DNA of 64,000 nucleotides. Source: a virus. The notes beneath the pieces were generated by a model. The model did not search any database and was not told the DNA's origin. It saw only the letters and a list, made by a program, of their open reading frames with translations. The stretch is from IMG/VR virus record IMGVR_UViG_3300012206_000007, positions 4,724 to 68,723 of that record; one strand, 5' to 3'. Positions 3,618-60,793 of this stretch are shown in pieces; the first letter of the stretch is position 1, and the number at the start of each line of letters is the position of its first letter. The position numbers and the translations under genes were made by a program.

Positions 3618-3807
3618 CGCCGTGCTCGTCCTGCAGGTGGTCGGCGAAGCACGGCAGGCAGAACCACGCCTCGCAGTCGAGGCAGGCGTGCCCTGCCGCA
3701 CGCGGGACCCACCCCTCGCACCCGTCGCATTGGCGCATCGGGTCGTCGCTATCGCCTAGCGCGTCGAGGTCCGGGTCGATGTCGTGGCCGTTGGGGTCGT
3801 CCGTCAT
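3610..3807 (-). CDS. Small acidic Zn-finger (B-box-like) protein
   Basis: MTDDPNG...CDGC...CLDC...CLPC..DH; TGATG coupling with the upstream gene. Confidence 0.55.
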   Translation of the reverse strand: MTDDPNGHDIDPDLDALGDSDDPMRQCDGCEGWVPRAAGHACLDCEAWFCLPCFADHLQDEHGDA

Positions 3808-4436
3808 CACGCGAAGCCTTTCAGCAGCAGGTTCGCTGCGAGTTGCGTCAGTTGGGCGCGCTGCTCGCAGTAGGTCGAGCGCTCCGGGTCCTGGAGGCGC
3901 CCCACTTTCGAGAGGAGCCAGCCGAGGGCGTCGTACTTGACGCCACTGGCGAACTCGTCGGACACCGGCAAGGTCAAGGCCGCACCCGTCATCGAGGTCG
4001 GGCGGGCGATATAGAGCAACTCGATGGTGCCATTCGCCAGGGGCGTCGGGACCAAGCGGAGGGTCAGCGTGGAGGCGTCGAGCGCGGCGTAGCCGAGTGG
4101 CGTGCCACCCGTCACTTCCCACGACGGCAGGCCAAGGTCGGCCTCGAAGCTATCGACCGGCGAGAGCGGTGTCCGCACGCCCGCGAGGCTGCGCCAGACG
4201 AGGTGCGCGGTGGCGAGGTGGTCGGTCGGCAGGGCGACGGAAGTCGCCGCCGCGAGGACGGCGAGTTCGGTGCGCGTTACCACGAGGTGGGTGGCGCGGA
4301 GGAGCTCGCGTAGCCCCCCGTTGACGCCGTCGAGGACTTCCTCGCGCGTCCAGACCTCGGAGGGCCACGACGCGCCGCCATCGGGCGGCTCCAGCAGCGC
4401 GAACTGCAGCTCCTCCAGCAACGCCTGGTCGGTCAC
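3807..4436 (-). CDS. Head-tail adaptor / tail ring protein
   Basis: N-terminal helix WTREEVLDGVNGGLRELL, then VALP.D, LRLVPTP...LLY and a C-terminal helix; pattern typical of podoviral adaptors. Confidence 0.65.
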   Translation of the reverse strand: MTDQALLEELQFALLEPPDGGASWPSEVWTREEVLDGVNGGLRELLRATHLVVTRTELAVLAAATSVALPTDHLATAHLVWRSLAGVRTPLSPVDSFEADLGLPSWEVTGGTPLGYAALDASTLTLRLVPTPLANGTIELLYIARPTSMTGAALTLPVSDEFASGVKYDALGWLLSKVGRLQDPERSTYCEQRAQLTQLAANLLLKGFA

Positions 4437-6717: not shown

Positions 6718-7089
6718 TCAGCTCACGCGGTGCAGGTTCCGCACCACGAGGATGACTTCGTGCTTCCCCGCGCCGGCAGGCCACGTCCACTCGAACAGCG
6801 CGATGTGCCGCTCAAACGGCAGCGCCTCCACCAGCGTCGTGTCGCCCACTTGGATCGTCCACGTCAGGAGGCCACCAGCGGAGACCGTGACGTTGTTCGC
6901 GTTGAGGACGTTCTGCACGTTCCGGCTGTTGACGATGCCGTCGGTGCCGTCGGCCTTGATGACGTAGAGCGTCAGGACGAGCGTCGAGAGGGTGCCCGCC
7001 GGGAGGGGCGTGACGCCGTCGTTCGCGACGAGTGTCGCCGTGTATTGGCCGGTGGCTTTCTCGTCAATGTCGAACGTCTGCGGCAGCAT
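6718..7089 (-). CDS. BppU-N-like fibre-anchoring/adaptor domain protein
   Basis: 123 aa beta-sandwich pattern (YTATLV..DG, GLLTWTIQVGDT, ALFEWTW). Confidence 0.5.
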   Translation of the reverse strand: MLPQTFDIDEKATGQYTATLVANDGVTPLPAGTLSTLVLTLYVIKADGTDGIVNSRNVQNVLNANNVTVSAGGLLTWTIQVGDTTLVEALPFERHIALFEWTWPAGAGKHEVILVVRNLHRVS

Positions 7090-7655
7090 CAGCAGAGGGC
7101 CTCATCGACGAGAGTCGAGGACGCGAAGGCTTCAGCCGTGAGGTCGGAGGCCGTGACCGCCTCGCTTGACAGGTCGGTGGTCGTCACCGCATCGTCCACC
7201 AACTCGGTGCAGTAGACGCCGAGCGCGATGAGCGCGGGCGGCGTGACGTAGACCGCCTCGGTCGGACGCAGGCGGCGGCGCATCAGGCGGTCGAGCAGGG
7301 TGGGGGTCCACCCGAGCGCCTGCGCCACCACCACCTGCACCGACGGCGGCGGGTCGAAGGTCTCGCCCCCCAGACGACCCCGCGCGAGGCGGCGCAGGGG
7401 TAGGCGCGGACGCAGGACAGGTAGCCACGTCGCAGGCCGCACACCATCCATGAAGGGGCCGACCCACTCGCGCACATTGAGTTGGCGTCGGCGACGAGGC
7501 GCAGCAGGCTGCGCCGCGAGGAAGGTCAGGCTCATGAGGACATCGGGGACGGCGATAGAGGCTGCGGAGGACGGCGCGACGGTGTCCGCCTTCGACCGCA
7601 GGCGGCAGCGCGGCGGCTGGAGCGGATCAATCGGGAGCCAGTCGAGCGCCATCAC
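7089..7655 (-). CDS. Hypothetical protein
   Basis: Coupled ORF in the late operon. Confidence 0.5.
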   Translation of the reverse strand: MMALDWLPIDPLQPPRCRLRSKADTVAPSSAASIAVPDVLMSLTFLAAQPAAPRRRRQLNVREWVGPFMDGVRPATWLPVLRPRLPLRRLARGRLGGETFDPPPSVQVVVAQALGWTPTLLDRLMRRRLRPTEAVYVTPPALIALGVYCTELVDDAVTTTDLSSEAVTASDLTAEAFASSTLVDEALC

Positions 7656-8551: not shown

Positions 8552-9439
8552 TCAGAAAGCCGTGCACCCGCCGATGAGCGTATCGTTCGCCGTCCACGCA
8601 ATGGTGGATGTAATGCCGACCGACGCTGTCGTCGACGAGGTCTGCCGCGTGATGTCGAGGGGCGTCGTCTGGTCAATGAGCCAGCAGTTCCAGCCGGTGG
8701 TCGCGGTCGGCAGGTTGATGGTGCCCGTGGTGCCGGGAGCTGTGCCGCCTACGGTGATGCGGAAGGCGGCCGTCGTCGAGCCAGCGACGACCGCCGCAGC
8801 CGGGGATGAGCCGGCAAAGCTGGCAATCGTCGGCGCCGTCGCCGTCAGCGCAATCGCGCCGTTCAGTTGTAGCGAAGTCGTCGCGTTGACCGCTGGTGTA
8901 ATCACGGACGTGCCGATGTAGGCGGTGCGTGGGCGCGTGGCGCCGCTGGCTCCGATGTCGTAGGTGTTGTCGAGGCCGGCGACAAACATGCCGGTCCCAT
9001 CGACCTGCCAGCGCACGAGATTGTTCGTCGCCAAGGCAATCGGGACCGCCGATGTGCCCCCGATGAGGAACGTCCCGGCATTGACGGGACGCAGCCAGAT
9101 CAGATTGGCATACAGGGCCCCGGTCATGGGGCCCCCCACCATCCCGGAGGAATAGGCGTCGAGGACCACTTGCGCCGTATCGCTGCGCGCGATGAAGCCC
9201 GCCGAGGCAAGGTTCGCGCTGCTCGTATTAGCGATGTCGATGCGGGGCCCGCCAGGCGCCACCGAGGTGGAGGCTTTGAGGAAGTTCGTGTCGGGCACGG
9301 TGCCGATGCCGAGATTCCCCAGCGGCGCACGGAGGGCGCGCTGCACCTGCGCCGACAGTGGTCCCTGCCCACTGACCGAGACGGTCAGGAGTCCAAGGAG
9401 CAACACGCCAACCGGCGCCAACAGCCAGAGACGCCGCAT
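8552..9439 (-). CDS. Fibre-like protein with N-terminal signal peptide
   Basis: GNLGIGT and DNTYDIGASGATRPRTAYIGTS fibre-shaft motifs; leader MRRLWLLAPVGVLLLGLLTVSVSG-Q. Confidence 0.6.
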   Translation of the reverse strand: MRRLWLLAPVGVLLLGLLTVSVSGQGPLSAQVQRALRAPLGNLGIGTVPDTNFLKASTSVAPGGPRIDIANTSSANLASAGFIARSDTAQVVLDAYSSGMVGGPMTGALYANLIWLRPVNAGTFLIGGTSAVPIALATNNLVRWQVDGTGMFVAGLDNTYDIGASGATRPRTAYIGTSVITPAVNATTSLQLNGAIALTATAPTIASFAGSSPAAAVVAGSTTAAFRITVGGTAPGTTGTINLPTATTGWNCWLIDQTTPLDITRQTSSTTASVGITSTIAWTANDTLIGGCTAF

Positions 9440-9933: not shown

Positions 9934-10236
9934 CTACTGCTTGTCGACCGTGCCCGGCGAGCGGCGCGTCAGGTCGGGCGGGTCGGGTGGCGTCTCCGAT
10001 GGCGCGAAGCGATTCGGCAGGCTCGGGAGCCCCGAGACGCTGTTCGACGACTCTGCGGTTGAGGGTGAGGGGACTTCGGGCAGGGCCTTCTTGTCCCAGA
10101 AGGTCTGGAGGGCGGCGGGGCCATCGCCACCGTCAGCGTTAGGGTCGCTGCCTCGACTGGTGATGGTCGTGCCGCCGAGGTCGAAGCTGCTGACGGGTTG
10201 CTTATCGTCAGGCCAAAAGGTCTTCAGGTCGCCCAT
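9934..10236 (-). CDS. Hypothetical Pro/Asp-rich protein
   Basis: AGGAG SD; internal repeat LKTFWPDD / LQTFWDKK. Confidence 0.55.
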   Translation of the reverse strand: MGDLKTFWPDDKQPVSSFDLGGTTITSRGSDPNADGGDGPAALQTFWDKKALPEVPSPSTAESSNSVSGLPSLPNRFAPSETPPDPPDLTRRSPGTVDKQ

Positions 10237-10296
10237 AGAAGTCTCTCCTCTCGCAGTTGCGCGGCACCACTCACATTCTGTAAGCTAGGCGCCCCC

Positions 10297-10830
10297 ATGC
10301 GACAGTGCACGATTGACGGGTGCGAACAACCGTTCGTCGCCCGTGGCTGCTGCAACAAGCACTACAAGCGACTGCGCCGACACGGTACCACAGCCCCTCG
10401 GAAAGGTGAATGGGGTTCGGGCCACGTCGATCGCGCCGGGTACCGCTACCACTGCAGGCAGCGGAGAAAACGAGCCGAGCATCGGGAGGTGATGGAGTGC
10501 GTACTTGGCCGTCCACTACAGCGTGCAGAGGTCGTACACCACCGCAACGGCGACCGATTAGATAATCGCCCAGAGAACCTCTGCATCGTCTCACCGACAG
10601 AGCACCGCCGCCTCCACACGCGATACTTCCGTGACGCGACACATAAGCAATGCTCACGCCGCCACTGCCTTCTTCCACGGACGATGTTCACACGAGTGAA
10701 GCTGCGAGCGACACGACCGAATGACGACCCGCATTTCTCCATGTGCCGCCCCTGCGCCAGTCAGTACACGATCGCATGGCGGCATCAGTACAAGTCCAAG
10801 ACAGTCGCGTCCGAGGCGCGGAGCGACTGA
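10297..10830 (+). CDS. HNH homing endonuclease (antisense to late operon)
   Basis: CTIDGC...CNKHY Zn motif; EHREVME...VHHRNGDRLDNRPENL HNH_3 core. Confidence 0.85.
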   Translation: MRQCTIDGCEQPFVARGCCNKHYKRLRRHGTTAPRKGEWGSGHVDRAGYRYHCRQRRKRAEHREVMECVLGRPLQRAEVVHHRNGDRLDNRPENLCIVSPTEHRRLHTRYFRDATHKQCSRRHCLLPRTMFTRVKLRATRPNDDPHFSMCRPCASQYTIAWRHQYKSKTVASEARSD

Positions 10831-12784: not shown

Positions 12785-13972
12785 CTAGGCGGTGAAGTTG
12801 TGGAGGATGCGCGAGAGGCGCAGCGCCTTCAGCGTGAGGTTGCCACCAAAGAGGAGTTGGCCGGAGACCTGGTTGTCCTCCCGTGCGCCCTTGAAGCCGG
12901 TGAACCCGAACGCGAACTTGCTCGACTGCGAGATATAGAGCCGGATGTAGGCATCATCGCCTTGCGGGCCGAAGTTGAGCCACGCGAAGGTTTCGCCACT
13001 CGCGTTGTAGTTGCCCAGGTCGGCATCGTTCGTCCCGTCCTGCCCTGGCGCATACTGCGACATCATGATGGTCGCTTTGTCGAACTTCAGGCCCGGCCAG
13101 TTGATCTCCGGCTGGGTCGTGTCGACAATCTGGTGCGGCAGGAAGTTCTCGGCGATGAACCCCATCAGGCGGTTGGTGGTGAGGCCGACGGTGGGCGACT
13201 CGTTGCCGATGATGGTCGAAAAGTAGCTGTGGCGCAGCACGCGGTAGCTCATCGTCGCGTTGCTCGCGGCGATGAGGCCCGTGGGCGGCGTTAAGGCGGG
13301 AGAGACATCGGAGCGCAGCTGCCCTCCGTAGGAGGTGAAGATGTTCCCCGCGTAGGACGCGTTCACGCCATCGTTGAAGCCTTCCTCGATGCCGTTGATT
13401 TCGGCTGAGCGGTCGTCCCCGGCGAGCGCTTGGCCGTGGTGGTAGGCGGCGATTTCGAGAATCGCCGACATGGTCAAAGCCGCCTGCTGCATGTCGGTGC
13501 GGATGACGCTGAAGGCGGCACGCGGCCCCGCCATCTCGACTTCCAAGTCCTCGAGGAACTCGGTCACGTTGACTTCGTAATAGCGCGGCGTGAAGAGCAG
13601 GCCAGAACGGGTCTGCCGCCGCGCCACGTCGAAGGTTGCGCCCTTCTTGTAGGCGCTCCCCTTCATCGGCTTGAAGAGGTAGTTCTCCTGAATTTGCGGA
13701 CCGATCCACTTACGGGTGAAGCGCGCCTTCATCATGGCGATGAGCGGACCGCCCTTGAAGTAGCCGTCCACGACGCCCGGCATGATTTCCTTCGTCGTGA
13801 CGGTGTTCACATCGTCGAGCTGAATCGCCAGCGCGATGGGCAGGAAGGGCAGGCTCTCGGGGCGCACGTAGAGCGCCACGAGCGCAACGACGACAGCGAG
13901 CAGGCGTGGGTGCGCGCCGAGCCAGAGACAGACTCTGCGCGTCGTGGCGGTGAGCCACCGAATGGACTGCAT
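12785..13972 (-). CDS. Major capsid protein (with ~49-aa hydrophobic N-terminal leader)
   Basis: 395 aa; VVDGYFKGGPL, YYEVNVT...EDLE, INGIEE, GLKFDKATIM, QLLFGGNL motifs of an HK97-fold MCP; follows the scaffold gene; AAGGAG SD. Confidence 0.85.
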   Translation of the reverse strand: MQSIRWLTATTRRVCLWLGAHPRLLAVVVALVALYVRPESLPFLPIALAIQLDDVNTVTTKEIMPGVVDGYFKGGPLIAMMKARFTRKWIGPQIQENYLFKPMKGSAYKKGATFDVARRQTRSGLLFTPRYYEVNVTEFLEDLEVEMAGPRAAFSVIRTDMQQAALTMSAILEIAAYHHGQALAGDDRSAEINGIEEGFNDGVNASYAGNIFTSYGGQLRSDVSPALTPPTGLIAASNATMSYRVLRHSYFSTIIGNESPTVGLTTNRLMGFIAENFLPHQIVDTTQPEINWPGLKFDKATIMMSQYAPGQDGTNDADLGNYNASGETFAWLNFGPQGDDAYIRLYISQSSKFAFGFTGFKGAREDNQVSGQLLFGGNLTLKALRLSRILHNFTA

Positions 13973-14018
13973 GAGTGAACTCCTTCGGCGGCGCCCGGCG
14001 GGGGCGATCGCCTAACTG

Positions 14019-14867
14019 CTAGAGGCCCCGCCCCGCTTGCAGTTGCTCGTAGGCCGCGACGGCGGCGTCAAGCGTGTGCGCGGCGGAGCCCTCTTTGGTG
14101 TCGAGGACATCGAGGACCGACGGGCCCGGCCCGCCGCGGAGCGGGAACGGCTGGTCGATGAGCTTCTTGCGCTCCTCGACCAGGCGCTTCTGGACCTCGT
14201 CCTCGATCTGCTTGTCGTGCACTTCCTTCTGTTTGGCGACGAGTTGCTCGCCGTACTTTTCCTGGTAGGCGTCTTGGAGGCTGAAGACCCGGCCCGGCTG
14301 GCCGAGAATGGGTTTGCCGAGTTTCGGGTTCGCCACCAGCTCCCGCATGTTGAGCGGGGAGCCGAAGGTCTGGTGGTGCGTGAAGCCAGTATCCTGCATG
14401 AAGGCGACGACATCGACATAGCCGCGCTCGCGTTCGGCGAGGCTCGTGTCGAGGAGGCTGGCGATGGTCTCTTCGATCGTCTTGCGATCGAGGGGCGCGG
14501 AGCGGTGGTCGCCGCCACCGTCGCCGTTCCCATCGCCGGTGCCGCCGCCCGCCTTGAGGCGGTCCAGCTCACTCTTCAACGTCGGATACTCCTTGAGCGC
14601 CGCTTCGTTGGTGCGATACCAGGTCTGGTTGCGGTCGTAGAGGTCGGTCGCGGCGACCAGCTTGTCCTTGAGGTCCTTGTCCTGCGCGGAGAGCTGATCC
14701 ATCCGTTTCGAGTAGTCCGAGCGAGCCAGCACGCCATCGCCCAGGAGGGTCACGGCGTCCTTCGCGTCTGGGGTCTCGAATGCGGCCTTCACCTGTGCGC
14801 GCAAGGCTTCGGGCACCTTCGCGAGCACGCCAGCGAGGAACGAACTGCCTTCTTCAAATGCGCCCAT
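14019..14867 (-). CDS. Scaffolding protein
   Basis: Charged coiled-coil protein (RSDYSKRMD, SLQDAY) between portal and MCP. Confidence 0.65.
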   Translation of the reverse strand: MGAFEEGSSFLAGVLAKVPEALRAQVKAAFETPDAKDAVTLLGDGVLARSDYSKRMDQLSAQDKDLKDKLVAATDLYDRNQTWYRTNEAALKEYPTLKSELDRLKAGGGTGDGNGDGGGDHRSAPLDRKTIEETIASLLDTSLAERERGYVDVVAFMQDTGFTHHQTFGSPLNMRELVANPKLGKPILGQPGRVFSLQDAYQEKYGEQLVAKQKEVHDKQIEDEVQKRLVEERKKLIDQPFPLRGGPGPSVLDVLDTKEGSAAHTLDAAVAAYEQLQAGRGL

Positions 14868-16026: not shown

Positions 16027-16593
16027 ATGTCCCACAGTCGATTCTGCCGCAGGTGCGGCGAACCTACCAAGGACTACCGGAATCAGTACTGCTCTCGTGC
16101 CTGCTTCGACTGTGCAAAGCGCGATGCGGCTGTCGTCGGCATCCCCCGACGCTTCTGGACCTGCGTGCAGAAGACGGAGACGTGCTGGCTGTGGACCGGA
16201 GGGCGAGATCAAAAGGGCTATGGAACATTTGCCCTGCCGAATAGGCGCGCTCATTTTGTGCGCGTGCATCGGTACGCCTACGAACTGGAAGTCGGTCCCA
16301 TTCCAGCAGGACTGAGCGTGCTGCATCACTGCGATGTCAGGAATTGCCTCAATCCGGCCCACCTGTTCCTCGGCACACAAGGCGACAACGTGCGGGATGC
16401 GGCGATGAAGGGACGCTACCCTCGGGGAGAACAGCATCCTTGGGCGCGGCTCACCGTCGATGACGTGCGCTACATCAGAGCGGCCTATGCCGATACGGAC
16501 TGTCGGCTGAAGGACCTTGCCGAACGCTTCGGGATCACGGAGAGCGCCGCCGCACGAATCGTGAAACGGCGCCGCTGGAGCCATGTCCCCTGA
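16027..16593 (+). CDS. HNH homing endonuclease with C-terminal HTH
   Basis: RFW..VQKTETCWLWTG...GYG...VHRYAY...VLHHCDVRNCLNPAHLFLGT..DN; C-terminal LAERFGIT. Confidence 0.9.
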   Translation: MSHSRFCRRCGEPTKDYRNQYCSRACFDCAKRDAAVVGIPRRFWTCVQKTETCWLWTGGRDQKGYGTFALPNRRAHFVRVHRYAYELEVGPIPAGLSVLHHCDVRNCLNPAHLFLGTQGDNVRDAAMKGRYPRGEQHPWARLTVDDVRYIRAAYADTDCRLKDLAERFGITESAAARIVKRRRWSHVP

Positions 16594-16845: not shown

Positions 16846-16990
16846 CGGTCGGAGTAGACTAGCGAGGTCCGGCGTCTGCGGTCAACAGGCGCCGGTCCCC
16901 TTGAACACCGTGGAATCGGAGGTTCCCGATGCCCTACCACCATCCTACACGAGCGCCCCATCTCACGTCAGCTACCCACAGGAGGACGCG

Positions 16991-17683
16991 ATGCGCCTCC
17001 TAGACTTGACCGGCCAACGCTTCGGTCGCCTCGTCGTCATCAGCCAGTGGGGCCATGACAAGTTCGACCGCGTCACATGGCTGTGTCGCTGCGACTGTGG
17101 ACGTGCGACGAGCCCGACGAGCAACAAACTGATGCGAGGCGAAACGCGAAGTTGCGGATGCCTACGTGAGGAATACCTGCATGATCGCACCTATCTGGAA
17201 GGCAGCCGGAACACGCGTGTCTACGAAATCTGGGCTGGCGCAAAAGATCGTTGCTTTCGTTCCGGTAGCCCTGCCTACAAGAACTACGGCGGTAGAGGCA
17301 TCACGATGTGCGACGCGTGGCGCGACGACTTCGCGCAATTCCAGAAGGATATGGGACCACGCCCACCGGGTGCCACACTCGATCGGATCGATAACAATGG
17401 CAACTACTGCCCCGAGAACTGCCGGTGGACGAGCCGACTAGCGCAAATGCGGAACCAGCGTAAGACACGACGGTACGACTTCGCGGGAGAATCGCGCACG
17501 TTGCAAGACTGGTCGGATATTACGGGCTTGGCGTTGTCGGCGCTCTATTACAGAATCAACGAAGGACACTGGTCAGTCGAGCGTGCGCTGACTACACCGA
17601 GCGTGACAGGAGGAAACAAGCCGAAACGGATCAGTGTCGAGACTCCGAGATCGTCGAACGTCCCCCCGGCTGATCATGCTTGA
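16991..17683 (+). CDS. HNH-type homing endonuclease
   Basis: LDLTGQRFGRLVV, WLCRCDCG, SCGC, YKNYGGRGITMC, TLDRIDNNGNYCPENCRW; GGAGG SD. Confidence 0.9.
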   Translation: MRLLDLTGQRFGRLVVISQWGHDKFDRVTWLCRCDCGRATSPTSNKLMRGETRSCGCLREEYLHDRTYLEGSRNTRVYEIWAGAKDRCFRSGSPAYKNYGGRGITMCDAWRDDFAQFQKDMGPRPPGATLDRIDNNGNYCPENCRWTSRLAQMRNQRKTRRYDFAGESRTLQDWSDITGLALSALYYRINEGHWSVERALTTPSVTGGNKPKRISVETPRSSNVPPADHA

Positions 17684-19778
17684 TCTCTTGATGGGGAGGG
17701 ACAGCAGCTGTTGGAGGCCGTCCAGCAGCGGACTCAGGCTGACCTACACCGATCAGTTTCTGTGCAGCCAGCCGCTCGGTCACGGTATGTGGCAGTCGGA
17801 TCTCTAGAATCTGCCCTGACGTGAGATCAGTCGTGTAAACGCGCCCTGTTAATGGATCGGTATATTGCGGCGGGGGCATCGCGCCAGACGCGAGGAGTGC
17901 AAGTCCTCCAGGCACCTGCTGCACTTTCGCGAGCAGTTGTTGCAGGACATCCGGTGGGGGTGGTTCTATTGGCGGGAGTGGGATCGTCGGGGGCGCCCCG
18001 ATATTCGGCGTCTGTAACGACTCGTGCAGACTCCACATATCCATAATCCCGAGTCTGAACAGCTGGAGGTTCATGAGCTTCTTCTCCGTCGCATCGATCG
18101 CGAGCACAGAGTTAGGCGCCACAATGAACTGGAGCTGGTTCGCGATGAAGAGCGCGCGTTCATCTCTGGAGGTGTTATCGACGTCTAACTCGGGCGTGTA
18201 CCCCTTGGCACCGGGGCGGAGGCCGGGCACTAAGGTGTTCGGGTCAAAGTCGAAATCCAAGAGTGACTGACCGGCGGAGCCGAGCACTTGGATGCGCTTC
18301 GCCTTGCTCAGAAACTGAAAGTAGTTGCACTTAACGAGATCCGAAAGATCGCGTAAGAAGGCTTCCACAGTCCGCGCTTCGTTCCGTATCTCTGGGGTGA
18401 GGGCCTCGAAGTACTTACTGATGGTGTCGGCGGAGGGCATCTGGCGGAGTTGGAGTAAGGCAGTGAGATTCGCCGTGCCGGCTAAGTCGGAGAACTTCGT
18501 GGTGAGCTGCTGCCAGAGCTCGAGGCCCATGGAGAGGATCTGCGGGTTGGGGCCGTCTTCCTTCTTCCACGGCGTGCCATAGCCGGGATTCACTTTGACG
18601 CGCTTGCCGGGACGGCGCGGGTCCATGAGGCGCATGGTGGCTTCGGAGACGGCGTTGCGGTTGTAGGTAATGTCGGCATCGGTCCACTGGCGCATGCCGA
18701 GGCGCACGTCATGCACGGTGTCGTTGATGGCGTCCTGAATCGGCAGGAGGTCGTTGAAGAGCGGCACGCCGAGGAACTGCCACGGCACCGACCAGAGACG
18801 CAGGCGGCAGAAGGGGTAGAGCCCGTGGAAGTAGGTGTTGGGGCCATCGTAGACGAGGGCGTCGTCGGTGGCGACGAGGAGACGGCCACGCGGGTAGAGC
18901 GGCTGGTGTGGCAGCACGGTGTAGGCCCAGTTGGCGCCGGGCGTGCCCATCGGGAGGGGCTTGTCCGTCAGGTTGTGCGTGCGGTCGCGGAAGTAGGCGC
19001 GATACAAGGCGACGCCGCCGCGACGCGGGCGGCGGGCCGAGGCGGCACTGCCCCCGAGGGAATCGAGCGGGTCGGCGGGCGTGAGGAGCCGATTGAGGCC
19101 GCTGCGGAAGCGGCCCATGATCTTGCCCAGCGAGGTGTCGGTGGCGGGGCGGAAGAGATTGGCCTTGGTCGGATACATGCCGCGCAGGACGTTGACGCTG
19201 TGCTCTTCGCGGAAGCAGACGCCTTCCCAGGTCTGGACGCTGCGGCCGTAGGAGGGCCGCAAGGGGAGCGTGTCGCGGGGGTCGCGCGCCGTGAACTGAT
19301 GCCCCCCGCCCAGGGGGAGGTGCGGGTCCCAGTCGACTACGAGGTCGCCCGTGCCCCCCGCGAGGGAGTACTTCACGCAGTCCCCGAGGTCGATGTCGAG
19401 CATCAGCGTGATCCACTCGGCGAGGAGGTACTGGTTGAGGAGGTCGGCTTGGAGCTGCGTCTCGGGCGGCCCTTTCCACCCGACCACAGGTTGGAAATCG
19501 GTGATGGCGGAGACGTGCGCCTGCATCGCTTTCCGGGTCTCGTTGATGACGACCTGCGGCAGGTACTTGAGTTTGCGCGTCTCGGGCGAGAGCTGTTCGC
19601 CCACGACGTATTGGAAGGCGCGCTCAATGCCGTCGTAGGAGGGGTCGGAGCGGTTGAGGAGGTCGCCTTCCTGCTGCCACTCTTTGAGCCAGCCGAGGAC
19701 GCGGGGGTCGCCGCGGGCGAGGGTGTCGGCCGTGGCTCTTGGGAGGTCGACGACTCCAGACGCGCTCAGATCGGCGAT
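17631..19778 (-). CDS. Portal protein (probable ATC start at 19778)
   Basis: P22-like portal features (VVINETRK, YPRGRLLV...YDGPN, GVPLFNDLLPIQDAIN); the frame stays open upstream to an ATC following GGAGGT. Confidence 0.85.
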   Translation of the reverse strand: MADLSASGVVDLPRATADTLARGDPRVLGWLKEWQQEGDLLNRSDPSYDGIERAFQYVVGEQLSPETRKLKYLPQVVINETRKAMQAHVSAITDFQPVVGWKGPPETQLQADLLNQYLLAEWITLMLDIDLGDCVKYSLAGGTGDLVVDWDPHLPLGGGHQFTARDPRDTLPLRPSYGRSVQTWEGVCFREEHSVNVLRGMYPTKANLFRPATDTSLGKIMGRFRSGLNRLLTPADPLDSLGGSAASARRPRRGGVALYRAYFRDRTHNLTDKPLPMGTPGANWAYTVLPHQPLYPRGRLLVATDDALVYDGPNTYFHGLYPFCRLRLWSVPWQFLGVPLFNDLLPIQDAINDTVHDVRLGMRQWTDADITYNRNAVSEATMRLMDPRRPGKRVKVNPGYGTPWKKEDGPNPQILSMGLELWQQLTTKFSDLAGTANLTALLQLRQMPSADTISKYFEALTPEIRNEARTVEAFLRDLSDLVKCNYFQFLSKAKRIQVLGSAGQSLLDFDFDPNTLVPGLRPGAKGYTPELDVDNTSRDERALFIANQLQFIVAPNSVLAIDATEKKLMNLQLFRLGIMDMWSLHESLQTPNIGAPPTIPLPPIEPPPPDVLQQLLAKVQQVPGGLALLASGAMPPPQYTDPLTGRVYTTDLTSGQILEIRLPHTVTERLAAQKLIGVGQPESAAGRPPTAAVPPHQEIKHDQPGGRSTISESRH

Positions 19779-21365: not shown

Positions 21366-21530
21366 TCAGCGGGGCTGCACTTTGCTCGCCAGCCAGAAGC
21401 AGGGGAGCGCCATCCAGCAGAGCGCGGCCCCGATCAGAATCGTGCGGAGGTCATCGGCAGGCAGTGCGATGACGACGCCCGCTAGCAGCAACAGCACCCC
21501 CGCGACGATCGCCGACAGGAAGCCCCGCAT
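21366..21530 (-). CDS. Small two-TM membrane protein
   Basis: Read manually: MRGFLSAIVAGVLLLAGVVIALP...ILIGAALCWMALP. Confidence 0.5.
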   Translation of the reverse strand: MRGFLSAIVAGVLLLLAGVVIALPADDLRTILIGAALCWMALPCFWLASKVQPR

Positions 21531-29416: not shown

Positions 29417-29554
29417 TCAGCGAAGCATCAGGTAGAAGCACAGCAGCGACAGGCCGCACGCACTCAGCCAGAACCCGACGACGAACAGCCGCGCCAGCAC
29501 ACCCGCTCCGCCACACAACGCGAACAGGATGAGCCCTAGCAGGATAGCGACCAT
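29417..29554 (-). CDS. Small two-TM membrane protein
   Basis: Read manually: MVAILLGLILFALCGGAGVLARLFVVGFWLSACGLSLLCFYLMLR; TTGCGC-N17-TAAGCT-N6-ATG. Confidence 0.55.
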   Translation of the reverse strand: MVAILLGLILFALCGGAGVLARLFVVGFWLSACGLSLLCFYLMLR

Positions 29555-42979: not shown

Positions 42980-44146
42980 ATGACGAAGACGCCTCTCCTC
43001 CTCGTCGGCGATGGCCCCGCCGAACCCACCGGTCTGGGTCGCATCTTGCGCGACCTCGGCACGCTCCTCGTCCAGAGTGACCTCCCGATCGACCTCGCCT
43101 CGGTCGGCGGGCCCGTCCCGCCCGTCTGGCGCGCGTGGCCGCACTACCCACTCGACGAGCGCCTGCACCGCGGCGAGGACTGGGGCGCAAGCTACGTCGA
43201 GCAGCTCTGGGCCAGCCACTTCGGCAGCCGCCCCGGCATCCTCTGGGTCATCTGGGACCCGAGTCGCTTGGTCTACTACCAGCACCTACAGGCCCCAGTC
43301 GTGAAGTGGGCCTATCCGGCGATTGATGCCGCCAACGGCGTGGGGACCATCGGCGGGCCAGCAGGTGAGGCACTCGCCTCGTGGGACCGCGTCATCGCCT
43401 ATGGCCGGTGGGCGAGCCAGATCATCAAGACGGTGCGGACTGAAGCCGTGCCCTACCTGCCGCACGGCCTCCACAGTGAGACCTATGATCCGGCGGCGAA
43501 CTATCTGTACCAGTCAGGGTGGGCGCACGACCAGCTCGGTCCCCACTGCAAAGGGAGCGACCTCGTCGTCGGCTGCGTCGCGACCAACCAGGCGCGCAAA
43601 GACCTCGGCCTCTACTTCCAGACGCTGGGCAAACTGAAGGACCGTGGCCTCCCCGTCTACGGCTGGCTCCACACCGACACACTGGTCAAGGCGTGGGCGA
43701 TTCCGCAACTGGTCGAGGACTGCGGCCTCGCGAAGCGGGTGACGGTCTCAACGCGCGCCTACACCGATGCCGAACTCGCCGCCTTGTATCGCGCGTGCGA
43801 CGTGACGATTGCTCCTGGGCTCGGCGAAGGGTTCGCGTACCCCATCGCCGAATCGTTGGCGAGTGGCACGCTGGTCGTGCACGGCGACTACGCCGGCGGA
43901 CGCGAACTCGTGCCGAAGCGCGAGTGGCGCTTCCCGGTGCGGGAGCTGCGACTGGAGGGCCTCTACGCCGTCCAGCGGCCGGTGTTCCGGGCCGAGGATG
44001 TCGCCAATGCGGTCGAGCGGGCGCTCGCGTGGCGCGACGCGGTGGGGCGGGAGACGGCGTCGTCGTATTGCACAGGCGCTGTCGCCCATCTCGACTGGCA
44101 GGCGCTGGCGGGGCGCTGGCTTGCCTGGGTGAAGGCGGGGCTGTGA
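42980..44146 (+). CDS. Glycosyltransferase (GT4, GT-B)
   Basis: TGLGRI, LPHGL, VATNQARKD, LYRACD...GEGFAYPIAESLASG. Confidence 0.85.
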   Translation: MTKTPLLLVGDGPAEPTGLGRILRDLGTLLVQSDLPIDLASVGGPVPPVWRAWPHYPLDERLHRGEDWGASYVEQLWASHFGSRPGILWVIWDPSRLVYYQHLQAPVVKWAYPAIDAANGVGTIGGPAGEALASWDRVIAYGRWASQIIKTVRTEAVPYLPHGLHSETYDPAANYLYQSGWAHDQLGPHCKGSDLVVGCVATNQARKDLGLYFQTLGKLKDRGLPVYGWLHTDTLVKAWAIPQLVEDCGLAKRVTVSTRAYTDAELAALYRACDVTIAPGLGEGFAYPIAESLASGTLVVHGDYAGGRELVPKREWRFPVRELRLEGLYAVQRPVFRAEDVANAVERALAWRDAVGRETASSYCTGAVAHLDWQALAGRWLAWVKAGL

Positions 44147-53585: not shown

Positions 53586-54337
53586 CGGCCGCCTACCCCT
53601 TGAGCAAGTGCGTAGATCCGGTGCCAGACTATGCCGAGCTCACCCCTGAACTTGCCACCGTCGACCGCTTCTTTACCGCCGCGAGCGAGCAGCATAGCGG
53701 GCGTCGGTGGGAGTACGCACTCGCGTTACGCGCCCTCACGGCCTGGACGTCCACTCGCGCCCCGCACGAGCATCTGCACCTCATCGATGTCGGCGGTGCG
53801 GGCTCGCCCTTCGCGCTGATGGCCGACCACCAGCTCCGCCAAGTCGCCGTCGAGCACCACATCAGGCACCTGCAGGTGACGATCATCGACCCCGCATGGA
53901 GCGGGCTGCTGCTCGGCCCGGCCGCAGAGGCTGGCGCGACCATCCAGCCGGTGCCGCTCGACCTCGCCACCTACCTCACGGGCGATGCGCCCGCGACGCT
54001 CGCGCACATCTGTACCGTTCTCTCTGTCGTCGAGCATGTCCCTGACCTCGAGCGTTTCCTCTTCCACCTCAGTTGCCTCGTGCTGCCGGGCGGGCTGCTC
54101 TTCCTGACGATGGACTGCTGCGAGGCCGACGCACCCGACCCTGGGGGCTGGCCCACCGACCGCTATCACTTCCACTGGATGCGCCAGCGGATTTTCGACC
54201 GGCCGCAGTGGCAGCGGCTGCGCGACGTGTTCGCGCGGTACCAGTTCCGCCTGTCTGGTGAGGCGGACTGGGCATGGAAAGGCGCGCACGTCGCGGACTA
54301 CAGCTTTTGTTCGCTTGCTCTGGTGAAGCGGGTATGA
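53582..54337 (+). CDS. Class I SAM-dependent methyltransferase
   Basis: RRWEY, IDVGGAGS, LSVVEHVPD, LPGGLLFLT. Confidence 0.8.
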   Translation: MTAAYPLSKCVDPVPDYAELTPELATVDRFFTAASEQHSGRRWEYALALRALTAWTSTRAPHEHLHLIDVGGAGSPFALMADHQLRQVAVEHHIRHLQVTIIDPAWSGLLLGPAAEAGATIQPVPLDLATYLTGDAPATLAHICTVLSVVEHVPDLERFLFHLSCLVLPGGLLFLTMDCCEADAPDPGGWPTDRYHFHWMRQRIFDRPQWQRLRDVFARYQFRLSGEADWAWKGAHVADYSFCSLALVKRV

Positions 54338-55614
54338 CCTTCACGGTAACGCTCCACGACCGCTGCCGCCTCTGCCAAGGCGTGCTCGACCCGGTGCTCG
54401 ACCTCGGACACCTCGCGCTCCCGACCTTCCCGCGCCCAGAGGACGATCCGGCGCCACGCGTGCCGCTCGACCTCACGACCTGCCGCACCTGCGGCCTCGT
54501 GCAGCTGCGCCACACCGTCTCGCCGGACGCCTTGTTCCGTACGTACTGGTACCGATCGTCCACCAATGAGGCGATGCAGGCGGAGCTGACGGACATCGTG
54601 CGCGCGGCGCTGGCGGCGGTCGACGTGGAGGCGAACGATCCCGTCATCGACATCGGCGCGAACGATGGCTTCCTCCTCAGTCAGTACCCGCTGTGCCTCC
54701 CCCATCGGAGGCCGGAGCGCATCGCCTTCGAGCCCGCGCACAACCTCAAGGACGCGTGCCGCCGCCATGCCGAGCAGCACTGGGCCGAATACTTCCCCCC
54801 CACAGGCGAGACCCGCGCGACGCATGTCCTCCCGGTGGCGTGGCGCCGGAAGGTCAAAGTGCTGACATCCATCGCCTGCTTCTACGATGTCGAGGACCCG
54901 ACCGCGTTCGTGCAGGCGGTGGATGTCCTGCTGGCCGAGGACGGCGTGTGGATCGTGCAGCTCCAGGACCTCGCCCAGACCGTTGAGGCGACCGCCTTCG
55001 ATTGCGTCTGTGCGGAACATCTGACTTACTGGTCACTGGCCAGCTTTGAATTCCTGCTCGCTCGCACAGACGTGGACTTGCACATCGTCCACGCCGAGCG
55101 GCGCCCCATCAACGGCGGCAGCCTCCGCCTCCTGATCCGGCGGCGGCACCACACGGTCGACGAGACCGTCCACACGCTCGCGGAGCAGGAAGCTGCCTCG
55201 ATCACATGGCAGGCGCTGGAGCGCTTCGCGTGGTCGGCGGTGGTGGCCAGGACGCAGATCGAAGCGGCGGTCCACGCGGCGACGCGTGCGGGCTTGACGG
55301 TCGACTTGTATGGGCCAAGCACGAAAGCAGAGACGCTCACACAGTGGGTTGGCCTTGGGCCACCGCGCATCCGGCAGGCGTGGGAGCGGCACCCAGACAA
55401 GATCGGGCGGCTGACGGCAATGGGCATCCCGATTGTCGACGAGGAGACGGGGCGTGCGGACCCCCCGGACCTTCTTCTCGTCGGCATTTGGCAATTCAGA
55501 GAGGGCATCCTGCGGCGTGAGGCGGACTACTTGGCCGGTGGCGGTCGGCTACTTTTTCCGCTGCCAGTCGTCGACGTGGTGAGCTATGGCCTTGTCCTCC
55601 CCACCGTCATGTAG
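54334..55614 (+). CDS. NDP-hexose C3-methyltransferase-like protein
   Basis: CRLC...LDLG...CRTCGLVQL, YWYRSS, IDIGANDG, EHLTYWS, NGGSLR, YGPSTKA, W.F. Confidence 0.85.
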   Translation: MTFTVTLHDRCRLCQGVLDPVLDLGHLALPTFPRPEDDPAPRVPLDLTTCRTCGLVQLRHTVSPDALFRTYWYRSSTNEAMQAELTDIVRAALAAVDVEANDPVIDIGANDGFLLSQYPLCLPHRRPERIAFEPAHNLKDACRRHAEQHWAEYFPPTGETRATHVLPVAWRRKVKVLTSIACFYDVEDPTAFVQAVDVLLAEDGVWIVQLQDLAQTVEATAFDCVCAEHLTYWSLASFEFLLARTDVDLHIVHAERRPINGGSLRLLIRRRHHTVDETVHTLAEQEAASITWQALERFAWSAVVARTQIEAAVHAATRAGLTVDLYGPSTKAETLTQWVGLGPPRIRQAWERHPDKIGRLTAMGIPIVDEETGRADPPDLLLVGIWQFREGILRREADYLAGGGRLLFPLPVVDVVSYGLVLPTVM

Positions 55615-57251: not shown

Positions 57252-57717
57252 ACCTCCCTGACGAGCCGCTCCAGCCGACGCCTGCGCCGCGCGAGGCCGA
57301 GGACGTACGCGCCACCGAGTGGTACCGCTTCTGCCGAGAGATTGACGACATCATTGCTACGGGCAACTTCACATGGGCGGAAGACACCCTCAGTGACATA
57401 GCCGCGACGGTGGAGAAATACCAGCGCGTCACCGAGGGCCAGCGCAAGGCGGTCGCAAACATCGAGGCCGCTCGCGCCGGACGTGGCAGTCGGCGGCATG
57501 AAGGCTTCTATCGGCGGTGGCGATGAGTACACAGCCCTGTGGGTGTGACGAAGAGGTGGGCTGGATCTGCGCGTTTCATCAGATGCTCGCTGAAACGTGG
57601 AATACGTGCCCCGACTGCGGCGTCCGGTGGAAGGACCACGTCGCCACGCTTGGTGTGATTCATCGGACGCGACTCTGCCCTGCATGCAAAGCCGCGATAG
57701 ATGCCACAACTGAGTAA
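57227..57717 (+). CDS. Two small genes (57227-57526, 57523-57717)
   Basis: Coupled ORFs; the second is Cys-rich. Confidence 0.5.
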
Positions 57718-60700
57718 GCCTGCCGCGTGTGGAGGGTGCCCATTAGCAACACGCGGCACCGGCTATGTGCCCGGCGAAGGGCCAGCGGGCTCGCCTATCG
57801 CGTTCGTCGCGGAGTCGGCGGGTGCTGTCGAGGCTCTTACTGGTCGGCCGTTAGTCGGCGACGCTGGCGGCATGTTCAGCCGCACGTTAGGACTCCTCGG
57901 CTGGAATCGCGACGCCTTCCGCTTGGATAACTGCGTCCGTTGCGCGCCCCCCAAAGGCTGGTTCGACGAACGTGCTCCCTGGTACTACGGGGCACTGGCG
58001 CATTGCCAGTACGTCGAACGCGAAACGCTCGCGCAGGGCAGCAAAGTCGTCGTCGCACTCGGCGGCACGGCGCTCAAGCGCCTGATGCACCTGGAGCACC
58101 ACAAGGACAGCATCAAGATCGGCGACTGGCACGGCGCGATCCTGCGCGACCCCACCGACAGATATTTCGTCGTGCCAACCTACCACCCGAGCTTCCTGCA
58201 GCGCGGCGCCACCAACCTGATCGGCACCGTGCTGTGGGACCTCAAGCAGGCGGAGATTGCACGCGACACCGGCAAGCCTGCCGACGCCGGCTCACTCGTC
58301 ATCGACCCGCCGCTCGACTGGTTCCGCACGTGGGTCGACACTGTGGTGGCGGCCCGCCAGCAGGACTCCGCCGCCTACCCCATCTCCTCCGACGTCGAGA
58401 CGCCCGACAAAGCCGGTGGCAAGGATGAAGGTGAGATCACCGCCGAGCACAAGAGCTTCCAGATCCTACGGGTGAATGTCGCGTGCCACCCGGATGAAGG
58501 CGTCACAGTGCCGTTCGCGGAAGGCTACATCCAGGAGCTGGCGCGGCTGCACCAGTCGCCCGGCCAGATATTCGAGTTCAATCGGGAGTACGACTTCGTA
58601 CGGCAGGTCCACGCCGGGATGCTGTGCGAGGAGGACTCGGCGAAGGTCATCGACCTGATGTGGCTCTGGCATCTGCTCCAGAGCGACGTACCGCGTGGCC
58701 TCGGCTTCGTCGCACCGTTCTACTCGACCTCTGGGCCCTGGAAGCATCTCGCTCGCAGCGAGCCCGCGCGCTACGCCGCGATTGACGCCCTGCAAACGCA
58801 CCGCGTCGGCTTTGGCCTCCTCACAGACCTGCAGGCGACGGGGCAGCTCGCCATCGCGATGCGCCACACCCATCGCCTCCTCACCGAAGTCCTGCGGCCT
58901 GCGCAGCTCGTCGGCGTCAAAGTCGACCGCATCCGCCTCGACGTCTTCAAGCAGACGCTCACCGAGAAAGCCCGCGCCAGCCTGCAGGCCCTCCAGCTGT
59001 GTGTGCCCGAGAGTGTCTGCCCGCTGACGCCTAAAGAGGGGTTGGTGCACAAGCCGCTGGAAAACGTGCTGCATGTGAAGGCGACCGCCTTCACACGGAA
59101 GGGGACAGCGCGTGCAGGCCGCCAACCCGCCGAGATCAAACAGGAGCTCTATGCTACCGCGCGGCTCGTCGAGAAGCTCGTCCTCAAAGAGGTCTGGGTC
59201 TGCCACGCCTGTAGGGGAGTGGACGTATCGCGGCGGCACACTTGCCAGCCTCAGTTACCGGTTGGACTGGGTGGTCGCCTGGATTCACCGGTTCCAGCAG
59301 ACCTACCCTCCCAGACAGAGCGTCCAACCCTGTCGCTGGCGCCTGCGTCTGTCCCTCGCTGGTTCTGGCAAGAACCGTTCAATCCCGACTCGTGGCCGCA
59401 AGTCCTCGCCTACATCAAAGCCAAGAAGCACACGCCCGGCCGCGCCGAGAAAACGGGCAAAGACTCGACCAACCGCGACACCCTCATCCGGTTAGAGCGC
59501 ACGACGCACGACCCCTTCTACCGGCACCTGCTCGACTACCGCGCGGTCGGCAAGGTGAAGGGCACGTATGTCGAGGGCACCGAGCGACTGCTCGACACGG
59601 ACGACCGGTTGCACCCGACCTTCACCTTCAAGCCCTCGACCATGCGGTTGAGCGCAGCGGCACCGAATTTAACGAATGTGATCCAGGACCGGGAGGGACC
59701 GACGAGTCTCGCGGCTGGCTTCCGCAAGACGATTGTCGCTTCTCCCGGCTGCCGCCTTCTCGAATGTGACTTCAGTTCGATCGAGGCAACGGAGGTCGCG
59801 TGGTGCGTGCGCGACCCGACCCTGCTGCGCGTCGCGCGCCTCGGCATCCACGCCTACCTCGTCGCCCACCACTTGAACGATGCGCCCGACCTCTCGGCCG
59901 CCGATGCCGACATCGCCCGTCACCTCCAGCAGGTCAAGAAAGCGGCGGGTCCGCTCCTCTATGACCAGATGAAGCACACCGTCTACGGCGTCTTCTACGG
60001 CCAGACGCCCGCCGGGCTGCAATACACGTGGCCCGACCTCTACCCCACGCGCAAGGTCGCCGAGGCGATGGTCGACTTCCTCTTCGGCCACTTCCCGAGC
60101 GTGAAGACGTTTCAGCAGGTGGTGCTCGAGACGGCGGCACGGCAGCACTTTTTGGGGGGCAGCGGCGCCTATCAGTTCACGCCACCTGCGCCCGGCATCG
60201 CCGGCAGTGTCAGTGGCCACCCCTACGCGTATTGCCACTGGTTCTGGAGTCTGTTCAGCTACAAGCGGCTCACGCGGGCGGAGGAGTTGCGCGTGCTCGC
60301 GCGGGCGCAGCAGGCGGGGCAGGCCGCGCCGGTGACCTACATCGGTGGGCAAGCCTTCCGCCTGAGTCGAGGCGCGGATGCGAACCGAGCGATTGCCTAC
60401 TATCCACAGTCCATCGCGGCGGGCGTCTTGAAAGAAGTCGAGCTGCGCCTCTTCGGCGACCGAGAGAGCGCGAGCTACATTGGCGACGCCTATTTCGGGC
60501 GAACGCCGCTGCGGGCGCCGATTCACGACTCGCTGCTGCTGGACGTGCCGCACCGCGAGTGGGATCGTGTGGTGCAGGCGGTGCTTGTCGAGATGCAGTG
60601 CCCGATTGCCGCGCAGCCACTGCCCGAGGCGTGGGGCCTCGGCACCCACTTGACGATTGGCATCGTGGCGAAGGCGGGCAGTAACTGGGCTGAAATGACC

Positions 60701-60793
60701 GACATCACCGAGGCCGCACGCACTGAGACGACCGTGCGACCCATGGAAGCCGAGGACGAAGCCGAACTCGATGATCTCGGACGGGCGGTCTAG
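57701..60793 (+). CDS. Family A DNA polymerase with N-terminal family-4 uracil-DNA glycosylase-like domain
   Basis: UDG: CGGCPL, AESAG, GRPLVGDAG, NCVRC, TYHPSF. Exo: SDVET, FNREYD, YAAID. Pol: NLTNV, DFSSIE, KHTVYGVFYG, IHDSL. Confidence 0.9.
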   Translation: MPQLSKPAACGGCPLATRGTGYVPGEGPAGSPIAFVAESAGAVEALTGRPLVGDAGGMFSRTLGLLGWNRDAFRLDNCVRCAPPKGWFDERAPWYYGALAHCQYVERETLAQGSKVVVALGGTALKRLMHLEHHKDSIKIGDWHGAILRDPTDRYFVVPTYHPSFLQRGATNLIGTVLWDLKQAEIARDTGKPADAGSLVIDPPLDWFRTWVDTVVAARQQDSAAYPISSDVETPDKAGGKDEGEITAEHKSFQILRVNVACHPDEGVTVPFAEGYIQELARLHQSPGQIFEFNREYDFVRQVHAGMLCEEDSAKVIDLMWLWHLLQSDVPRGLGFVAPFYSTSGPWKHLARSEPARYAAIDALQTHRVGFGLLTDLQATGQLAIAMRHTHRLLTEVLRPAQLVGVKVDRIRLDVFKQTLTEKARASLQALQLCVPESVCPLTPKEGLVHKPLENVLHVKATAFTRKGTARAGRQPAEIKQELYATARLVEKLVLKEVWVCHACRGVDVSRRHTCQPQLPVGLGGRLDSPVPADLPSQTERPTLSLAPASVPRWFWQEPFNPDSWPQVLAYIKAKKHTPGRAEKTGKDSTNRDTLIRLERTTHDPFYRHLLDYRAVGKVKGTYVEGTERLLDTDDRLHPTFTFKPSTMRLSAAAPNLTNVIQDREGPTSLAAGFRKTIVASPGCRLLECDFSSIEATEVAWCVRDPTLLRVARLGIHAYLVAHHLNDAPDLSAADADIARHLQQVKKAAGPLLYDQMKHTVYGVFYGQTPAGLQYTWPDLYPTRKVAEAMVDFLFGHFPSVKTFQQVVLETAARQHFLGGSGAYQFTPPAPGIAGSVSGHPYAYCHWFWSLFSYKRLTRAEELRVLARAQQAGQAAPVTYIGGQAFRLSRGADANRAIAYYPQSIAAGVLKEVELRLFGDRESASYIGDAYFGRTPLRAPIHDSLLLDVPHREWDRVVQAVLVEMQCPIAAQPLPEAWGLGTHLTIGIVAKAGSNWAEMTDITEAARTETTVRPMEAEDEAELDDLGRAV

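Follow-up and report, generated by a model that had tools for sequence, protein, structure and literature searches.

A translated, optional hydrophobic leader on the HK97-fold major capsid protein of an uncultured tailed phage

What part can a strongly hydrophobic segment play at the very start of a tailed-phage shell protein? The pro-pieces known at the N-terminus of HK97-fold capsid proteins are hydrophilic, serve as scaffolding domains and are removed by phage proteases, and a membrane-anchor-like head piece on the shell protein is unusual for tailed phages. The question is raised by the major capsid protein (MCP) gene (12785..13972, minus strand; 395 codons plus stop) of an uncultured, soil-type phage, IMG/VR record IMGVR_UViG_3300012206_000007, a virus genome of 68,723 nt that is 99% complete. 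We analysed positions 4,724 to 68,723 of this record, a stretch of 64,000 nucleotides hereafter called the window, whose numbering is used throughout unless another locus is named. An earlier note had read codons 1-49 of the gene (13826-13972) as a signal-peptide- or membrane-anchor-like leader ending in A-L-A, and had proposed that a host membrane protease may release a membrane-tethered capsid precursor from it. Here, we find that the first 47 codons are a genuine translated leader, hydrophobic, optional and fast-evolving, and we weigh what this leader may do.

The 395-aa product opens with MQSIRWLTATTRRVCLWLGAHPRLLAVVVALVALYVRPESLPFLPIALAIQLDDVNTVT. Its ATG lies at 13970-13972 on the minus strand and is preceded at a distance of 7 nt by a strong Shine-Dalgarno (SD) motif, AAGGAG (13980..13985, minus strand); a 282-aa gene ends 46 nt before it. 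The N-terminus and the SD quoted in the earlier note are exact in the open reading frame (ORF), and its remark that no further Met follows until well into the core is borne out, the next Met being M64. Residue 48 is the counterpart, in alignment, of residue 104 of HK97 gp5 and of the Met at which leaderless homologues initiate. Based on alignments, N-termini and base composition, we therefore delimit a leader of codons 1-47 (13832..13972, minus strand), which is without counterpart in leaderless homologues, while structural alignment ranges and homologue start positions delimit an HK97-fold core of residues 48-395 (12785..13831, minus strand). The gene is single-copy in the 68.7-kb phage genome (one match in its own genome).

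Is the leader translated, or does the frame merely happen to stay open upstream of the real start? Metagenomes contain this phage family widely, with 534 proteins at E<=0.001, and homologues of the MCP come in two forms: one of 348-357 aa starting M-A-I-Q-L-D-D and one of about 383-399 aa that carries the extension. More distant representatives nearly all begin at query residues 48-53. We compared 73 IMG/VR loci with the window at the DNA level; all 74 sources matched and, two loci being N-terminally cut (L059 and L062), 72 were classed. In 55 of the 72, an ATG or GTG stands at the core start with a stop a few codons upstream, and every one of these 55 leaderless loci has an SD match 3-12 nt before the core start. 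Fifteen of the 72, the window included, carry a homologous leader. Their codon at the core start is CTG (as in the window), CTC or GGN, an SD at the core start is found in 0 of the 15, and all 15 have an SD motif of 5-7 nt placed 6-9 nt before the upstream start. One odd locus, L069, has no start in view. The window leader also holds GTG codons at residues 32 and 36; neither has an SD before it. The conservation of the leader among homologous MCPs, which the earlier note had proposed to examine, is accordingly partial, with a homologous leader in 15 of the 72 loci and a start at M-A-I-Q-L-D-D in 55.

The leader also has the composition of coding sequence. GC content at third codon positions (GC3) is 0.87 in the window leader against 0.52 at second positions (GC2), and across the 15 loci GC3 ranges from 0.66 to 0.91 and GC2 from 0.37 to 0.57. 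Mean grand average of hydropathy (GRAVY) over the 15 loci is +0.95 in the leader frame, the other five frames giving -0.49 to -1.51. At least 90% of the 15 aligned leaders share H21 and P38, although synonymous divergence (dS) is saturated. Taken together, the codon and SD pattern at the core start, GC3, the frame-specific hydropathy, the homologous leaders in 15 of 72 loci and the HK97-fold core described below establish the leader as a genuine translated N-terminal extension, more than a chance open frame.

Could the leader exist as a gene of its own in phages that lack it on the MCP? We looked for it as a separate small gene upstream of the leaderless MCP and found none; the short intergenic gap holds only the SD. 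Among 6972 candidates of 22-98 aa, a single match to a free-standing leader homologue was obtained, and this is an MCP fragment cut at a contig end. A leader profile likewise detected nothing in five leaderless genomes (0/5 at E<=10). The same profile recovered the leader in its own genome (1/1) and in the five leader genomes L009, L070, L011, L017 and L016 (5/5); as positive controls these are weak, the profile having been built from those same leaders, the window's own included.

The assignment of the core as a capsid protein draws on the ORF list, a structural model and HK97-fold matches. The MCP and five neighbouring proteins matched 0 Pfam and 0 PHROG families, and a profile of MCP homologues searched against PDB sequences gave 0 matches. 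By the model, the protein belongs to the capsid proteins at the level of the fold, not through a curated sequence family (Pfam or PHROGs). An AlphaFold2 (AF2) model built on 46 homologues reached a predicted local distance difference test (pLDDT) score of 86.7 and a predicted template modelling (pTM) score of 0.76. Searched with Foldseek, it gave 336 PDB matches at E<=0.001; the matches listed are tailed-phage capsids and encapsulins, with Pa223 as the top PDB match (E 2.2e-11), and the best BFVD match is annotated 'Major capsid protein' (E 3.4e-18). Structural alignment with VIA-align to the capsid protein of cyanophage A-1(L) covered 306 residues (model 50-395) with Z 21.6 and a root-mean-square deviation (rmsd) of 3.4, and alignment to HK97 gp5 covered 267 residues (chain 104-383 on model 48-394) with Z 17.7 and rmsd 3.7. 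The earlier note's designation as major capsid protein is therefore right at fold level. With HK97 residue 104 on model residue 48, the leader sits where HK97 has its delta domain.

The position of the gene agrees with this assignment: it lies in the head module, near the portal gene, of a tailed-phage genome. The portal protein gene (17631..19604, minus strand; 657 aa) is homologous to the annotated portal of Tunturiibacter phage Tunturi_1 (BLASTP E 6e-35), with which the window also shares synteny. A match to SU10_adaptor (PF24175; E 1.2e-14) lies at 3807..4436 on the minus strand, and the neck resembles that of podophage SU10. The capsid of podophage SU10 is also among the fold matches of the MCP.

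What kind of segment is the leader? In the window, it starts with a basic helix, residues 2-20 (13913..13969, minus strand; R5, R12 and R13), which ends in the kink motif W-L-G-A-H-P-R-L. Next comes a first hydrophobic arm, residues 24-36 (13865..13903, minus strand), which at 13 residues is the longest run without charged or strongly polar residues and is flanked by R23 and R37. An R-P-E turn, residues 37-39 (13856..13864, minus strand), includes the conserved Pro and leads into a second hydrophobic arm, residues 40-52 (13817..13855, minus strand), that by its sequence crosses the junction (L48, A49) into the core. AF2 places helices at residues 2-20, 22-36 and 38-43 (pLDDT ~82-87) and leaves the linker 44-56 uncertain (pLDDT <50). 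This layout is shared: a basic helix, W-L-x-x-H-P-R-L and a hydrophobic arm of 12-16 residues, then an aromatic residue, an R/H/N-P-D/E turn, a hydrophobic stretch of ~10-16 residues into the core, and D-D.

We examined 40 leaders of at least 35 residues, a set that includes some near-duplicates and one fragment. The first 22 residues are net positive in all 40, and 28 of the 40 reach at least 1.6 in a 19-residue Kyte-Doolittle window (KD19), the core maximum being 0.95. An [HN]-P kink is found in 27, and in 29 the Pro turn is preceded by an aromatic residue. The basic region followed by a hydrophobic stretch that the earlier note described thus recurs across leaders, and the build appears membrane-anchor-like. 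To judge from its composition, the leader resembles a standard membrane span less than it does an anchor of the hairpin or monotopic type or a helical hairpin that is buried. A protein-atlas look-up of residues 1-50 returned no feature match; its structural rows were short helices that carry no weight.

The leader changes rapidly. Its nonsynonymous divergence (dN) is 0.5-1.4 in 10 of 11 pairs (0.11 in the closest, L008/L012), against 0.05-0.1 for the core in the same pairs; the leader evolves 6-10 times faster than the core. It also comes and goes. A tree of 66 loci, 14 with and 52 without the leader, holds at least five trait changes. From 120 listed database proteins, a motif filter classified 106 (dropping 1 with the leader, 10 without and 3 that are N-terminally truncated); among the matches listed, the leader is present in 41 of the 106 classified close homologues (~40%) and absent from 65. 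The tree of these 106 proteins has nine trait changes, at least four of them forced by well-supported branches. In the DNA alignment, the two forms are separated by one clean in-frame indel immediately behind an SD and ATG that both share. The core has no column that covaries with the presence of the leader, in a test that, with only four supported independent pairs, has no power. A hydrophobic extension at this exact site is therefore recurrent, optional and fast-evolving.

Other leaders were seen at the same site. A clade at ~33% identity (L111-L118) carries unrelated two-arm hydrophobic leaders of ~22-37 residues in five of the six loci in which the N-terminus can be seen, each preceded by an SD of its own; the leaderless locus is L115. 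L072 (5920..6003) has 27 codons for one hydrophobic helix that follows an acidic N-tail, and a GTG at -27 preceded by GGAG. L076, a 3.3-kb contig found with the single MCP protein as query, has a 19-codon single-helix leader upstream of 1629, also with an acidic N-tail, and AGGAG before the upstream GTG.

The A-L-A that suggested signal-peptidase cleavage fares less well. The motif is present just before the capsid sequence as the earlier note stated, and it straddles the junction: A49 belongs to the core, being residue 2 of leaderless forms, and the middle residue, G in 32 and L in 8 of the 40 leaders, aligns with the leaderless initiator Met. A strict AxA at the proposed site is found in 3 of the 40. 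At -1, 26 of the leaders have A and the other 14 a non-permissive residue (P, V, I, L, E, D or T); 25 pass both filters (small -1, allowed -3). As a release site for signal peptidase, the motif is not conserved, and this reading of the A-L-A is not supported. Export by the Sec or Tat route, with signal peptidase I cutting behind A-L-A, would account for the basic n-region, the 13-residue h-region and the A-L-A before I50 in the window, and T-R-R-V-C-L loosely resembles a twin-arginine motif. Set against this, the n-region of 23 residues is unusually long and the would-be c-region, from h-region to site, also measures 13; RR occurs within the first 25 residues in only 10 of the 40 leaders, so the twin-arginine motif is not conserved either. 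Signal peptidase acts on the outer face of the membrane, and the capsid protein has to remain cytoplasmic: export would take the sole capsid protein out of the compartment where DNA is packaged. On the junction residues and this compartment argument, we rejected Sec or Tat export as the principal explanation and give it very little credence; the A-L-A appears coincidental, and the leader, judged by its sequence, is not a Sec signal peptide.

What, then, could the leader do? The reading we favour, at a probability of roughly 40%, makes it an accessory piece that either anchors to the membrane from the cytoplasmic side or serves as a pro-piece for clustering; that it binds membrane, with what topology, and how it is removed, we infer. 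Built from a basic helix, a kink at H-P and two arms of 12-16 residues that an R/H-P-D/E turn folds into a hairpin, the leader would act as a reversible monotopic or hairpin anchor on the cytoplasmic side. There it would park or concentrate new coat subunits on the inner side of the cell membrane, with the folded core staying cytoplasmic. HK97-fold subunits have their N-termini directed towards the inside of the procapsid, as established for HK97 and in keeping with the structural alignment, so the leader would have to quit the membrane before or during the joining of the subunit to the shell, either clipped near the junction or pulled out. It would remain an accessory module, outside the core assembly mechanism. 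For this reading speak the genuine start and coding signal, the place of the leader on the fold, its anchor-like build and the recurrence of such leaders in relatives.

Several points weigh against this proposal. A membrane-held N-terminus is incompatible with a closed shell unless released, and no conserved cleavage motif is found at the leader/core junction of the 40 leaders. The longest run without charged or strongly polar residues is 12-16 in 37 of the 40 and at least 18 in only 3, and a simple sum over a Hessa-type hydrophobicity scale, taken for the best 19-mer, comes out positive in 39 (median +4.5); because the uncharged arms are short and these sums positive, stable membrane spanning is doubtful. 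The conserved W-L-x-x-H-P-R-L suggests a specific protein contact rather than generic lipid binding. Among the matches listed, the window MCP shares a branch of support 97 with two leaderless proteins of 89-90% identity; since its closest core relatives lack the leader, the leader's function is dispensable, and the membrane-associated head assembly of the earlier note is, for the same reason, unlikely as a fundamental pathway.

Nor does the genome offer an obvious enzyme for removal. Peptidase_S78 (PF04586), CLP_protease (PF00574), Peptidase_S49 (PF01343) and Peptidase_S77 (PF03420) gave 0 matches in the genome at E<=1, which also counts against the proposal. A Pfam scan of 34 phage proteins found no protease family. 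These searches agree with the earlier note that no prohead protease is recognisable, an absence that is weak because most phage proteins match no family. Within 6 kb on either side of the MCP gene, in the 15 leader loci and 57 others, no protease-like cluster follows the leader. When whole genomes were compared, five with the leader against five without, two adjacent genes (6718..7089 and 7089..7655, both minus strand) were found in 4/5 leader and 0/5 leaderless genomes. They bear no protease or membrane signature, the larger also occurs in 2 leaderless loci, and their link with the leader is probably a lineage effect.

The anchoring proposal has stronger forms. That coat subunits are stored at the membrane through the hairpin, that heads are fed or nucleated there, and that a host membrane protease or extraction frees the subunits seems unlikely to us; if true, it would amount to a membrane-dependent supply route for an HK97-fold capsid that a 141-nt indel turns on or off among phages otherwise nearly identical. 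Very unlikely is the extreme form, with lipid retained within the shell by leaders that face inwards.

The main alternative, which we hold to be somewhat less probable, dispenses with the membrane altogether. The leader may be an internal pro-piece, a 'mini delta domain', whose hydrophobic helices cluster under the capsomers inside the procapsid or bind a scaffold-like protein, assist assembly, and are afterwards degraded or tolerated inside the head. Its placement exactly where the HK97 delta domain sits fits this well, as do arms too short for a canonical membrane span and the conserved H-P-R-L and Pro turn, which point to specific packing; leader and leaderless genomes are moreover similar in size, roughly 69-72 kb, so the leader leaves capacity unchanged. 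Yet 47 residues at a GRAVY of ~+0.9 make a poor likeness of delta domains, which are hydrophilic coiled coils of ~100 residues, and the arm at 24-36 is hydrophobic on every face, unusual in a soluble bundle. The missing prohead protease family speaks against it too, and so does a separate conserved gene that both forms already have upstream of the MCP. This gene (14019..14867, minus strand), encoding the 282-aa protein mentioned above, is present in 70 of the 72 loci, matches no Pfam or PHROG family, and by its position and composition may be scaffold-like.

If the leader were instead never removed, it might persist as an extension of the N-arm, a hydrophobic staple of the mature shell gained and lost like a decoration protein. 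Patchy gain and loss of the kind seen on the 106-protein tree is reminiscent of accessory stabilisers, no protease was recognised, and the leader helices are modelled at pLDDT ~82-87; but the linker that follows them is below 50, so no docking site is predicted, the (powerless) covariation test offers no partner column in the core, and a dN so far above that of the core poorly fits a precise structural contact. We regard the staple as rather improbable. Rapid sequence turnover with retained composition, repeated loss and gain, and the unrelated leaders at the same site in the distant clade would also be expected of a mask or decoy that hides the coat N-terminus from, or relocates it away from, cytosolic capsid-sensing immunity, and at search-result level a literature on bacterial capsid-protein sensors exists. 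No defence-related gene co-occurs with the leader, however, and masking is compatible with membrane anchoring rather than exclusive of it; on its own, it is highly improbable. Hardly credible, finally, is a neutral or mis-annotated extension, with the real start near residue 48 or a functionless insertion: a frame can extend by chance in DNA of 66% GC, and close relatives do dispense with the leader, but the CTG or GGN codon and the lack of any SD (0/15) at the core start, the strong upstream SD (15/15), the coding signature in GC3 and frame-specific hydrophobicity, and the retention of H21 and P38 at saturated dS all contradict it.

How does the leader compare with known N-terminal pieces? 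The HK97 delta domain, a hydrophilic coiled coil of ~100 residues, does the work of a separate scaffold and is removed by gp4, the neighbouring protease. Like the leader, it lies directly N-terminal to the N-arm, is helical and is absent from the mature fold. The leader differs in its 47 residues and strong hydrophobicity, in being optional in close relatives, in occurring alongside a separate conserved upstream gene, and in a genome where, unlike in HK97, no Peptidase_S78, ClpP, S49 or S77 match was found. In the staphylococcal phage 80alpha, the N-terminal piece of the capsid protein is trimmed by the host protease Prp and no phage protease is involved; unlike the leader, that piece is non-hydrophobic, spans 14 residues and mimics the N-terminus of ribosomal protein L27.

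Coat and shell proteins linked to membranes have precedents, which speak for the anchoring proposal. The major coat protein pVIII of phages f1/M13 is held in the membrane before assembly. It differs from the MCP in being a 50-residue single helix without HK97 fold that forms a filamentous, extruded virion, with no packaging into a preformed shell. PMC10175506 describes pVIII as made with a cleavable N-terminal signal sequence. In T4, as described in PMC9958956, a 65-residue N-terminal piece is cut from gp23, and prohead formation begins at the inner membrane, with release after cleavage. Unlike in the proposed anchoring, T4 makes its membrane link by way of the portal gp20, together with gp40 and YidC, and without the capsid protein, and the cleaving enzyme is the phage protease gp21. 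Among encapsulins, which are HK97-fold shell proteins, some have Sec-like signals or transmembrane helices, and PMC8346489 gives Family 3 members 4-5 predicted transmembrane helices. Unlike the MCP, encapsulins form cellular nanocompartments without portal, terminase or DNA, and the membrane segments of Family 3 are C-terminal.

The nearest cultured relatives are the Tunturiibacter phages Tunturi_1 and Tunturi_2, whose major head protein is 27% identical to the MCP over 61% of the query (E 7e-20). Their gene order is that of the window (terminase, portal, HNH, small genes, MCP) and the portals are homologous; unlike the window MCP, the Tunturi major head protein has no leader. A literature search on Tunturiibacter phages found no paper. 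No paper listed by full-text literature searches describes a transmembrane-like leader on a tailed-phage capsid protein, and the excerpt of PMC11445458 held nothing relevant to such leaders.

The leader is no one-off: it is carried by ~40% of the listed close homologues, and unrelated leaders of similar build occur in the clade at 33% identity. Natural, near-identical pairs with and without it could show the effect of such a tag on localisation, assembly kinetics, stability and immune sensing. If the leader does bind membrane, tailed-phage head assembly would be tied to the membrane by the capsid protein itself, where T4 uses the portal.

Several other features of the window were recorded. In the tail/structural module, a 295-aa protein (8552..9439, minus strand; no Pfam match) has a hydrophobic N-terminus (residues 2-28, KD19 2.33) that resembles a signal or anchor, so that the MCP is not alone among virion-module proteins in starting with a hydrophobic stretch. 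Two HNH_3 endonuclease genes (16027..16593 and 10198..10830, plus strand; E 1.4e-12 and 8.7e-11) and a familyless ORF of 260 aa (16901..17683, plus strand) lie on the opposite strand within the minus-strand head/tail module and look like homing-endonuclease insertions; Tunturi_1 likewise has an HNH gene after the portal. The plus-strand half encodes a group 1 glycosyltransferase (42980..44146), a C-methyltransferase (54274..55614) and a family A DNA polymerase with an N-terminal domain of the uracil-DNA glycosylase (UDG) superfamily (57701..60793, plus strand). Two short minus-strand ORFs, 21366..21530 (54 aa) and 29417..29554 (45 aa), are almost wholly hydrophobic (KD19 2.85 and 2.59) and may encode holin-like or membrane peptides.

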